Shown one piece after another: positions 13,441 to 15,330 of a DNA stretch of 64,000 nucleotides. The stretch is from positions 7,298 through 71,297 of the forward strand of contig JABISL010000042.1 in NCBI GenBank assembly GCA_018700055.1, written 5' to 3'. Under the pieces are notes generated by a model. It was not told the DNA's origin, made no database searches, and was given only the letters and a program-made list of their open reading frames with translations. The position numbers were made by a program, and so were the translations under genes. Position 1 is the stretch's first letter. Every line of letters starts with the position of its first letter. This stretch comes from a bacterium (lineage in GTDB: Bacteria; Margulisbacteria; Marinamargulisbacteria; UBA817; JABISL01).

Positions 13441-14130
13441 AACCAGCCTGTCGTTCATGAGGAAAATGTTCAAAAAACGGATGCTCTTCTCTTAGCTCAA
13501 GTGGGAGTTACACAAGTCACAGATCAACGCCCTTCGGATGCCTCTACCGTATCTGGGTCTGGAGTGACAGGCCGTCCATCAAATGAGGATAGTGGAGGAA
13601 GTGGTGAGGAAGAAGGTTCTGATCAGGTTGGGGATCTTCGGGAAAAGTCGAATCCAGTTGATAAAAAGGCGTATAAGAAGACTTCAACGGGGAAAATTCC
13701 AGTACTCCGTACAGTGCGTGGTATAGAAAGAGAAGATAAAAACTATATGCAGGATTTTTGTGAAAAGGGGTGTTTGAAGGCGATAAATACACTAAAAAAT
13801 GAAATGGGAGATGATAACTTTCGGAGTTTGATTCAGTTATGTGTGTATGATGGTAAAAGAACGTTACTTCACGTAGCTGCTGGAGGGAAACATTTTGAGG
13901 TTTGTAAGTTGTTGATTAAGTTTGGGGCGGATGTGAATAGACAAAATTCTGGTCAGGGAACCCCTTTTCATAATGCATTGTCGGGAAATAAGGATCGGGT
14001 GACAGATTCTCAAAGAGAAACGGTAAAATTGTTTATCCAAAACAAGGCTGATTTGGATGTTAAGAGTTGTTTGGGAACTACTCCTGGAGAAAGGCTTGTA
14101 CTGTTGGGTTTAGAGGATTTACTTCAATAA
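13300..14130 (+). CDS. Ankyrin-repeat protein, paralog A1 (Gly/Ser-rich N-terminal region, C-terminal ankyrin repeats)
   Basis: 276 aa; ankyrin consensus (TLLHVAAGGKHFEVCKLLIKFGADVN..GTPFHNAL); AGGAG RBS 7 nt upstream; paralog of 15441-16295; no signal peptide. Confidence 0.7.
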   Translation: MNESGHVVSQTKCWPRSWNPFGFGSTNAAKVSDVSAGNTQATTAGGENQPVVHEENVQKTDALLLAQVGVTQVTDQRPSDASTVSGSGVTGRPSNEDSGGSGEEEGSDQVGDLREKSNPVDKKAYKKTSTGKIPVLRTVRGIEREDKNYMQDFCEKGCLKAINTLKNEMGDDNFRSLIQLCVYDGKRTLLHVAAGGKHFEVCKLLIKFGADVNRQNSGQGTPFHNALSGNKDRVTDSQRETVKLFIQNKADLDVKSCLGTTPGERLVLLGLEDLLQ

Positions 14131-15330
14131 GTTAAACCTTGAAATATAGGGTTCGGGGAATTCTTTGCAGGTGCCATGGAAATTGATTAGGCCTGCTATT
14201 TCTAGAAGGTGTAGATGAGATTCTCTGATTTCTATTAGAGAATATTCGTGTATTAGGTCTAGCTTATCTTCAAAAGCTTGCTTAACATTTTGATTATCAT
14301 GAACCTGAACAAGTAGTTGGTTTACTGATTTGGCCAAGTCTTGGTATGGAATATTTGGGGTGTTAATAATCTCTGCACGATATGTTTTATTAAGAGTGAC
14401 GGCTTGAATCTCTTTGGCTTTTTTGTCAATGCAACGGGTTAGATCTTTGTGAGATAGGGGGCCTTGTCTCGGGTGATTATGAATAATTACAGCTTTTTCT
14501 TTTAACTCGTTTTTGAACGGAGGTACCTTTACGTGTGTGCTGGTTCCAATATTAAATTTTGGTTGGAGGACTCCTAGATCTTGCCCAAGGGAAGAGTTGA
14601 CGGGATCTACCACAAAACATAACTCTAATGGAAATACGGTTAATTGTTCTCTGAATTGATCCAGATTTCTAATTTTAGGATCCATGGTTTTGTTTTTGAA
14701 TTCAGTTAATAGCGATTTGTCTACTGTAAAAGTTCCTCCCATTACGGATGGTTTGTCTTTTGCATCACAGTAGTTTTTGATGAATCGACAAAGCATAGCA
14801 GTGCTCGTGCTAATTATTTCAGCTCGATCTTTGCTGCTTGAGCTTGATTGTCTAGATATTTTTCCTTCAATAACGGCATGAGGGTGAAGGTCTTGATCCT
14901 GCTCTGTGGAGAGAGCGTCGATTACAGCGAGAAACGCTTCGGGTCTGTTTTGTTCTAGTGTTGCTCTAAATCCATCTTTTTCTGCTGGAAGGAGTTGAGT
15001 ATACATTGTCATTAGAGATGAAATGCAATCAACGATATCTTGTCCAGGGTGATTTAGTCTTAATTGAGGAGTGTCAGGGAGACTCTGGTATATTACCTCT
15101 AAGACTTCTAGAACGGCGATGGAAAAGTCTAATCGATCTTGCTGTGATTCTTCGAATCCAGGGTCTTTAGGGTTGGATATCTTATTGATTCCCCCTTTGG
15201 CTTGGATGGCAAGAATGATAGATAGTGGCTCGTCCATAGTATGAGTGACAGAAGGTTGTCCTGGATTTAGGTCTCCTGCGGGATGTGCTGATTGTGGTTG
15301 TCCACTGGATATTGATGCGCCTGTTCCCAT
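14119..15330 (-). CDS. Hypothetical protein B1 with N-terminal MGTGAS motif and RadC/JAB-like IIHNHPRQGPLSHKD motif
   Basis: 403 aa; starts exactly MGTGASI with AAGGAG RBS; HNHP..S..D resembles the JAB/MPN (RadC-like) metalloprotease signature; convergent with A1, 12-nt tail overlap; paralog of 16275-17446. Confidence 0.7.
   Translation of the reverse strand: MGTGASISSGQPQSAHPAGDLNPGQPSVTHTMDEPLSIILAIQAKGGINKISNPKDPGFEESQQDRLDFSIAVLEVLEVIYQSLPDTPQLRLNHPGQDIVDCISSLMTMYTQLLPAEKDGFRATLEQNRPEAFLAVIDALSTEQDQDLHPHAVIEGKISRQSSSSSKDRAEIISTSTAMLCRFIKNYCDAKDKPSVMGGTFTVDKSLLTEFKNKTMDPKIRNLDQFREQLTVFPLELCFVVDPVNSSLGQDLGVLQPKFNIGTSTHVKVPPFKNELKEKAVIIHNHPRQGPLSHKDLTRCIDKKAKEIQAVTLNKTYRAEIINTPNIPYQDLAKSVNQLLVQVHDNQNVKQAFEDKLDLIHEYSLIEIRESHLHLLEIAGLINFHGTCKEFPEPYISRFNLLK

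Follow-up and report, generated by a model that had tools for sequence, protein, structure and literature searches.

RadC-like proteins (PF04002), among them E. coli YicR, carry a JAB domain in which a first-strand glutamate, a G-T turn, the tetrapeptide HNHP and an S-x2-D motif follow one another in this order. An E...HxH...S..D signature also marks the Prok-JAB proteins (PF14464) and the JAMM/MPN+ isopeptidases, such as Rpn11, AMSH, CSN5 and the bacterial Cap3. In a third setting, that of polymorphic toxin systems, Tox-JAB-1 and Tox-JAB-2 toxin domains have been described, and so have ankyrin-repeat immunity proteins (Imm-Ank), the toxin gene preceding the immunity gene on one strand (PMC3482391). 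Here we analyse a 64,000-nucleotide stretch of contig JABISL010000042.1 (assembly GCA_018700055.1, a Marinamargulisbacteria lineage), called the window below, and in it the gene of a protein, B1, whose 3' end overlaps that of an ankyrin-repeat protein, Ank1. B1 represents, in intact form, a protein family that is very rare and has not been described before, and the B gene and the ankyrin gene form a conserved two-gene module. The explanation we favour, at somewhat better than even confidence, is that B1 is a divergent JAB-type metal hydrolase acting together with its ankyrin partner. The elements of the module are as follows.

14119..15330, minus strand: B1 coding sequence, 403 amino acids, N-terminus MGTGASISSGQ; intact member of the new family
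13300..14130, plus strand: Ank1, the partner ankyrin-repeat protein, 276 amino acids; a long disordered N-terminal extension precedes the repeats (residues ~177-262)
14119..14130: convergent 3'-end overlap of B1 and Ank1, 12 nt

With RadC-like proteins the B1 family has the four elements and their order in common. It differs from them by a spacing of x6 instead of x7 between HxH and the serine and by the absence of a proline before that serine, of the Asp-His pair and of the helix-hairpin-helix domain; it adds an N-terminal helical region, a Ser-rich linker, about 80 C-terminal residues and the ankyrin partner. The catalytic signature is likewise common to the family and to the Prok-JAB and JAMM/MPN+ proteins, whereas the spacing is one residue shorter and B1 has no ubiquitin-like, E1 or E2 genes nearby. 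The Tox-JAB/Imm-Ank pairs, which we compared by description, resemble the locus in placing a divergent JAB domain beside a small ankyrin protein, and the B1 family adds to this likeness a repeated decay of the catalytic gene with the ankyrin gene kept. In contrast to those pairs, B1 and its ankyrin gene are convergent and overlapping, and B1 carries no N-terminal trafficking or repeat domains.

B1 has no match in Pfam, NCBIfam, PADLOC, PHROGs or the PDB sequences. An exhaustive phmmer search over 1.84 billion representatives returned eight proteins, of which three come from the window; in the remaining five (P0004-P0008) the matched regions show 25-35% identity. Searches of 5.8 billion protein clusters gave only two to four matches: the sequence search found just B1 and B2, the second B copy of the window, and the profile search found nothing new. 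One metagenome scan recovered only near-identical copies of P0006, and 72,556 plasmids, searched by tblastn with the cores of two members, produced weak matches only, without a RadC or JAB gene among them. No relative of B1 was found in species-representative genomes, and none of the family in viral contigs. In the PDB, neither B1 nor the profiles of the whole family and of its core gave a significant match; matches to an N-acetyltransferase-like protein and to peroxiredoxins (E 0.3-2) were judged to be chance. A match of B2 to the ubiquitin-like UN_NPL4 model (E=0.01) was rejected, as the region is predicted to be helical and no other member matches. In the literature we found no description of the B1 family or of a JAB-ankyrin pair in Margulisbacteria. 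What is probably new within the JAB superfamily, judging from these comparisons, is the architecture, the obligate ankyrin partner and a sequence that lies outside current domain models.

The pairing with an ankyrin gene is the most regular property of the family. Each of the eight B gene copies seen faces a small convergent ankyrin gene, and the 3' ends of the two overlap by 7-27 nt:

window, unit 1: overlap of B and ankyrin genes 12 nt
window, unit 2: overlap 21 nt
L084: overlap 11 nt
L085: overlap 7 nt
L086: overlap 9 nt
L097: overlap 9 nt
L087: overlap 8 nt
contig of P0007: overlap 27 nt

The neighbourhoods of the module are otherwise unrelated between loci. The ankyrin partners are homologous to one another, about 160-190 amino acids long with two to three repeats, and four of the five with a visible start begin with an MNxxxKxVA-like sequence (MT-NKKTVA in L085); the partners in the window have gained a disordered insertion of about 135 amino acids. 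Both window partners match Pfam ankyrin models above gathering scores (Ank1: Ank_4 at 46.1 bits, E=5e-12, Ank at 39 bits and Ank_2 at 37.5 bits; Ank2: Ank and Ank_2 at 28.9 bits each). Since adjacency and orientation have been kept across about 25% protein identity, the B gene and the ankyrin gene must be functionally coupled, and from this conserved pairing the ankyrin protein most likely binds B1 physically. With their two to three repeats the partners also resemble bacterial ankyrin-repeat effectors such as the Legionella AnkY/AnkH type (weak NCBIfam matches); these matches cover the repeats only, at 26-29 bits against an equivalog cut-off of 600, and give no evidence of orthology. In two other genomes the module has AAA_14/DUF4143 ATPases close by (L084 977-2116, 5235-6404), or else a KAP NTPase gene together with a nuclease-like gene of the PDDEXK_9 type (L085 8833-11466). 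Genes of these kinds often lie in accessory or defence regions.

Within B1, we distinguish the following parts.

14896..15237, minus strand: N-terminal helical region, residues ~32-145, from the family alignment and low-confidence secondary structure; matches no known domain or Pfam model
14815..14895, minus strand: Ser-rich acidic linker, residues ~146-172, present in all family members in the alignment
14356..14706, minus strand: putative JAB/RadC-like core, residues ~209-325, from hhalign, shuffle controls and sub-threshold Pfam matches in homologs
14623..14625, minus strand: codon of E236, candidate general base, invariant in all family members
14443..14481, minus strand: candidate metal site H284-N-H286-P-x5-S293-x2-D296, invariant in the five members that keep the segment

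The HNHP..S..D block near residue 284, to which the first-pass annotation had drawn attention, is real. Residues 282-296 of B1 read VIIHNHPRQGPLSHKD, and residues 282-299, which include H284, H286, S293 and D296, read VIIHNHPRQGPLSHKDLT. In the five members that keep the segment H284, N285, H286, P287, S293, D296 and L297 are invariant, and P234, E236, L237, D242, G262 and S264 are invariant across all family members. The segment-keeping relatives have the pattern E...G[T/K]S...HNHP-x5-S-x2-D in common, and the core is made of five conserved blocks: S-T-x-A-T-L-R-R-x-L-K-N-Y-W; F-F-P-x-E-L-x-F-L-V-D; I-G-T-S; [I/T]-H-N-H-P-R-x4-S-x2-D-L; and A-K-E-x-R-A-V-T. About 80 more C-terminal residues follow the core. 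A further parallel drawn by the annotation, between '..LNSSL..' and RadC, does not hold up: NSSLGQDL falls largely within an eight-residue insertion specific to B1 and B2 and aligns with a different RadC strand. Residues 240-251 of B1 read VVDPVNSSLGQD.

We compared the family with a RadC JAB alignment built from E. coli YicR and eight plasmid RadC-like genes. With hhalign, the whole-family alignment matched at a probability of 55% (P=1.2e-4) and the trimmed core at 75-77% (E=2e-5 to 2.4e-5). In this alignment E236 falls opposite the RadC glutamate, G262-T263 opposite the G-T turn, HNHP opposite its RadC counterpart, and S293 and D296 opposite the serine and the aspartate. Full column shuffles of the RadC alignment scored 13 +/- 2.5 (maximum 21) against 38.7 for the real one. 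When the HNHP block was fixed and the other columns were shuffled, the mean rose to 28.6 +/- 3.6 and the real score was reached in 2 of 100 shuffles, so that the signal outside the tetrapeptide is modest (p ~0.02). Two homologs match JAB-clan models of Pfam in the same region: Prok-JAB matches P0005 over the motif (E=0.0048, 17.2 bits, gathering cut-off 25) and RadC matches P0006 (E=0.18, 12.2 bits, gathering cut-off 22.1). The spacing in the family is E-(17-26)-G-(22-31)-HxH-x6-S-x2-D, compared with E-22-G-28-HxH-x7-S-x2-D in RadC. The JAB/JAMM catalytic signature of an upstream Glu, HxH and Ser-x2-Asp is present with x6 spacing, and the RadC motif HNHPSG-x3-PS-x2-D is not, its loop being one residue shorter and the proline before the serine missing. 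Around the motif, the low-confidence model predicts two strands, a third strand leading into HNHP, a helix that carries S..D and two more strands, a succession compatible with a JAB fold. Taken together, these results suggest that the C-terminal half of B1 is most likely a divergent JAB/MPN-type metal-dependent hydrolase whose nearest relatives are the RadC-like and Prok-JAB branches.

Several observations weigh against this assignment. The HNHP tetrapeptide, which first drew attention to the protein, supplies much of the hhalign score. The JAB-clan matches of the homologs all lie under the gathering scores, B1 itself matches no JAB-clan model at E up to 10, and profile-versus-sequence searches against the PDB are not significant. 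A RadC hidden Markov model (HMM) searched against 1,210 local open reading frames (ORFs) places the family near the top, at E 0.25-2 and with B1 outside the top 25. Canonical JAMM and RadC motifs have one residue more between HxH and the serine, and R-A-V-T stands in place of the Asp-His that RadC conserves after the motif. Structure models were of low confidence: AlphaFold2 reached a mean predicted local distance difference test score (pLDDT) of 32.8 with a three-sequence alignment of paralogs only, and a pLDDT of 48.3 with a predicted template modelling score (pTM) of 0.48 when all eight family sequences were used; fold searches with these models gave only helical noise. As both structure predictions are poor, the JAB fold is probable and not proven. 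For the binding of the ankyrin protein to B1, the evidence consists of the gene pairing. The proposal of a RadC/JAB-like site in the first-pass annotation therefore holds at the profile level, through hhalign and the sub-threshold Pfam matches in homologs, and does not hold for B1 taken singly, which matches no Pfam model.

The same observations have to be weighed for the view that HNHP..S..D is the functional site of an unrelated or new fold that has converged on RadC/JAB, B1 being then an orphan enzyme or a binding protein paired with an ankyrin protein. No curated model reaches its threshold, HMM-versus-sequence scores are at noise level, HNHP-fixed shuffled profiles occasionally equal the real score, the spacing is off by one residue with the RadC Asp-His missing, and the structure models are uninformative. 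Convergence, however, leaves unexplained why an upstream Glu, a G-T/S turn and the predicted order and spacing of strands and helix stand where a JAB domain needs them, and why two different JAB-clan Pfam models match the same region in two different members. We regard convergence as an unlikely account that nevertheless carries real weight.

Returning to the favoured explanation, a divergent JAB-type hydrolase would work as follows. H284, H286 and D296 would hold a metal ion, probably Zn2+, E236 would activate a water molecule, and S293 may help to stabilise the intermediate. Choice of the substrate would fall to the N-terminal helical region together with the acidic Ser-rich linker, and the ankyrin protein would bind B1 as an adaptor or as an inhibitor. 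The first-pass annotation had gone further and proposed a deubiquitinase or isopeptidase. This activity is not specifically supported, the nearest JAB clade, RadC, having been argued to act on nucleic acids rather than on ubiquitin-like proteins (PMC3239186).

The history of the module is recorded in the window itself, where the ankyrin-plus-B unit is duplicated in tandem (13200-15440 aligned with 15341-17560). The duplicated unit contains the features below.

15441..16295, plus strand: Ank2, partner of the second unit, 284 amino acids, intact
16562..17446, minus strand: N-terminal part of B2, 294 amino acids (P0002), from the start MGTGASI to the frameshift
16275..16565, minus strand: C-terminal part of B2, 96 amino acids (P0003), in another frame than the N-terminal part
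13250..13430, plus strand: 5' region of ank1, about 45 nt upstream and 41 codons, 92-98% identical to 15391-15570 of ank2, with no synonymous changes

B2 lacks the 58 nt that correspond to B1 14430-14487 (residues ~282-301), exactly the IIHNHPRQGPLSHKDLTRCI segment, the gap falling between 16594 and 16595. This deletion shifts the frame and splits B2 into its 294- and 96-residue pieces, and the ENA assembly of the same locus (L001) has the identical split. Between B1 and B2 the synonymous divergence (dS) is ~1.3-1.4 and omega ~0.2 for both B2 pieces. The duplication is old and has evolved under purifying selection, so that the B2 deletion is probably recent relative to it. In P0008 (L087 126-1172) the HNHP segment is also gone, here by an in-frame deletion of about 37 amino acids. 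Since its boundaries differ from those in B2, the catalytic block has been lost twice independently, and the ankyrin gene is retained beside both deleted copies. We considered whether B2 and P0008 serve as MPN-minus partners in the manner of Rpn8 to Rpn11; this is unlikely, as the deletions remove a core strand and helix instead of swapping ligands and B2 is frameshifted. At 16562-16565 (minus strand) the stop codon of the N-terminal part of B2 overlaps a GTG (GTGA). This GTG natively encodes the valine of the AVTLNK motif, and the 96-residue C-terminal piece begins with it; translational coupling could in principle still yield the C-terminal fragment.

Outside the near-identical 5' ends of ank1 and ank2, identity within the duplicated unit is 55-75%, so that these ends must reflect either gene conversion or strong constraint. 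A structured RNA was rejected as its cause, the fold being no better than that of shuffled sequence (z=+0.84). A recent foreign origin of the cassette was rejected too: its GC content of 40-42% equals the 42.5% of the window.

That catalytic segments are lost while the ankyrin gene stays is the usual decay pattern of a toxin and its antidote, and it brings into play an intrabacterial conflict module in which B1 would be a JAB-type toxin (a nuclease or peptidase) and the ankyrin protein an Imm-Ank-like antidote or cognate immunity protein. On this model, transcription of the two genes towards and across each other may help to balance toxin and antidote. The existence of both Tox-JAB-1 and Tox-JAB-2 domains and ankyrin-repeat immunity proteins (PMC3482391) speaks for it, as do the tandem duplication with divergence and the varied neighbourhoods, some of them near AAA_14/DUF4143, KAP NTPase and PDDEXK genes. 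Against this, Pfam finds no trafficking, RHS, LXG or other toxin-delivery domain in any member, B1 has no PADLOC match, and module and genome have the same GC content. Convergent genes, in place of co-transcribed ones, are atypical for toxin-immunity and toxin-antitoxin pairs, and the large N-terminal region and disordered linkers would be unusual for such toxins. We judge the model unlikely overall, on a par with convergence as a contender.

The first-pass annotation had read the pair of B1 and an ankyrin protein as fitting a host-directed function. The pairing itself is strongly confirmed and conserved, whereas the function is not singled out by it: by analogy, a toxin-immunity or enzyme-inhibitor pair would suit the arrangement equally well (PMC3482391). 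As to biological role, we lean slightly, and well short of even confidence, towards a eukaryote-directed pair over an intrabacterial toxin-antidote pair, which as a role we hold to be unlikely, if by no means negligible. The lean follows from the size of the protein, its disordered Ser/acidic segments, the ankyrin repeats, the constrained Met-Gly start and the presence of an intracellular symbiont in the phylum.

The N-terminus of B1 bears directly on this question.

15337..15342, minus strand: ribosome-binding site AAGGAG (CTCCTT on the plus strand), 6 nt before the B1 ATG
15310..15330, minus strand: codons of MGTGASI, matching the N-myristoylation consensus (Gly2, Ser6), identical in B2
15238..15309, minus strand: residues 8-31, a Pro/Gly/Ser/Gln-rich extension, poorly conserved (pN ~ pS) and without counterpart in distant homologs

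The sequence bears out the start at MGTGASISSG and its good ribosome-binding site, at a spacing of 6 nt, and reading upstream of the ATG we found no in-frame start codon; B2 has GAAGGAG 7 nt before its own MGTGASI. We tested the myristoylation consensus as a Met-Gly start followed by G-{EDRKHPFYW}-x2-[STAGCN]-{P}, with Ser or Thr preferred at position 6. MGTGASI fits PROSITE PS00008, has Ser at position 6 and precedes a hydrophilic, flexible stretch, and among the 76 ORFs of at least 100 amino acids in the window B1 alone combines an MG start with this fit. The heptapeptide is identical between B1 and B2 at 7/7 positions, with two synonymous codon changes, whereas only 10 of the 24 residues after it are identical; identity at all six non-Met residues against a background of 42% has p ~0.005. 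Over codons 1-30 as a whole, pN ~ pS. Identity of the heptapeptide despite synonymous changes and beside a drifting flank points to protein-level constraint on MGTGASI between the two paralogs.

N-myristoylation depends on a eukaryotic enzyme, and it would therefore require delivery of B1 into a host. In the family the MGTGASI motif is shared only by the paralogs B1 and B2, and a Met-Gly start is found in none of the five distant homologs, which begin with MPVL (P0004), MAKL (P0005), MVFL (P0006), MRFK (P0007) and MNKF (P0008). Lipidation consequently cannot be the general mode of action of the family. Near the N-terminus of B1, no second membrane signal (a Cys or a basic patch) is present. 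N-myristoylated bacterial effectors are well documented (PMC4951486), and type III effectors such as AvrRpm1, AvrPto, the HopZ family and XopJ/XopE resemble B1 in Met-Gly, a small residue 3, Ser6 and a hydrolase-like domain. They differ from it in having known secretion systems and hosts and, in many cases, a neighbouring Cys for palmitoylation, and the Met-Gly motif is confined to one lineage of the B1 family. Myristoylation of B1, as the annotation had proposed, is thus a legitimate and possible idea, which the consensus fit and the constraint between paralogs favour and which the five homologs and the missing second signal limit.

A specific host model can be built on these data, in which B1 is delivered into a eukaryotic host cell, is myristoylated at Gly2 by the N-myristoyltransferase of the host once Met has been removed, and acts at membranes as a JAMM-type deubiquitinase or isopeptidase for ubiquitin-like proteins, with the ankyrin protein as co-effector. 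It draws on the PS00008 fit with its hydrophilic linker and on the heptapeptide kept at 7/7 while its flanks drift, on the precedent of myristoylated effectors (PMC4951486), and on effector-like features, namely ankyrin partners, Ser/acidic segments that are disordered, and no Sec signal. The phylum includes Ruthmannia eludens, an intracellular symbiont of the Margulisbacteria group living inside placozoan cells (PMC6784892), and P0052, a homolog of the UPF0182 protein of the window, was found in a EukProt dataset. Opposed to it are the five distant homologs without Met-Gly, the absence of a Cys or basic patch, and the family's affinities: RadC and Prok-JAB are not known as host deubiquitinases, and RadC-type domains are without the tunnel for the tail of ubiquitin-like proteins (PMC3239186, PMC3482391). 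Neither a secretion system nor a host is in evidence in the 64-kb window, which encodes a broad autonomous metabolism (ATP-citrate lyase, fatty-acid synthesis, ATP synthase). We find the model quite doubtful, and we hold improbable the reading of the pair as a host-targeted effector module of pelagic Margulisbacteria-like bacteria, made of an N-myristoylated JAMM-type metallo-isopeptidase and an ankyrin adaptor. Least tenable, and in our view very improbable, is that B1 has a housekeeping role on nucleic acids within the bacterial cell, as a RadC-like protein. In favour, the best profile match is to RadC, neighbours such as ftsK and hom are housekeeping genes, and JAB domains of the RadC type occur widely among bacteria, with links to DNA transactions (PMC3239186). 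Against it, the family is patchy and extremely rare, it lacks a conserved place in the genome, Pfam finds no helix-hairpin-helix domain typical of RadC, and the pairing at all eight copies rules out an incidental ankyrin neighbour.

The window is a core chromosomal region, with gatB, a penicillin-binding protein gene, gap, pgk, rluD, ftsK, hom, dnaG and a sigma-70 factor gene, and further with genes for ATP-citrate lyase, fatty-acid synthesis and an F-type ATP synthase, and with tmRNA and RNase P RNA. The contigs (locus tag HOH87) derive from marine metagenomes. For the reading of B1 and Ank1 as an enzyme with its partner, these ordinary housekeeping neighbours and the absence of a secretion system in the window count as a point against. 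The best named relatives of the UPF0182 protein (29356-32070) are from Candidatus Margulisiibacteriota (53%) and Marinamargulisbacteria single-cell genomes (49-50%). P0052, also 53% identical, lies on contig COSAG01_NODE_216 of the EukProt (eukaryote) dataset, so that a related bacterium was co-sequenced with a eukaryote. The homolog loci L086 and L097 have the HD-LytR-RsfS gene order in common with the window (31-42% identity), which places at least that family member in the same broad lineage.

Some other features of the window are recorded here. Both subunits of ATP-citrate lyase (20025-23225, minus strand) are present in this Margulisbacteria-like genome; the closest copies (64-68%) are from Campylobacterota, Chlamydiae metagenome-assembled genomes, a Marinamargulisbacteria single-cell genome and Saanich Inlet bins. 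This hints at a reverse tricarboxylic acid cycle or lateral transfer. The ATP synthase c-subunit ORF (62063-62770, minus strand) encodes 235 amino acids and contains three ATP-synt_C hairpins in tandem. The ion-binding residues Q...ET are retained in the first and third (AVTETAA, AITETTD), and hairpin 2 has Gln for Glu (AVTQTST); from its sequence the subunit looks fused and partly inactivated. Three ORFs on the minus strand (24318-25175, 25274-26572 and 48967-49581; 285, 432 and 204 amino acids) have no Pfam match. The RNA genes are tmRNA (27496-27881, minus strand), a bacterial RNase P class A RNA (45673-46026, minus strand) and four tRNA genes; they can serve as markers to place the organism.

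If the JAB assignment holds, the family is an unrecognised branch of JAB/MPN proteins that domain libraries have missed and that is confined to a poorly known, Cyanobacteria-related phylum. Because the catalytic segment was deleted on two separate occasions and the ankyrin gene was kept each time, the family is also a small natural experiment on the decay of an enzyme-partner module. The B1/Ank pair offers a handle on whether divergent RadC-like JAB domains act on protein or on nucleic acid, and on whether pelagic Margulisbacteria-like cells interact with eukaryotic hosts as Ruthmannia eludens does. To our knowledge, the bacterial effector deubiquitinases described so far are cysteine proteases. 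If the host-targeted module were true, it would be a new class of bacterial effector and, for planktonic Marinamargulisbacteria-like cells, the first molecular indication of a life in or on eukaryotes.

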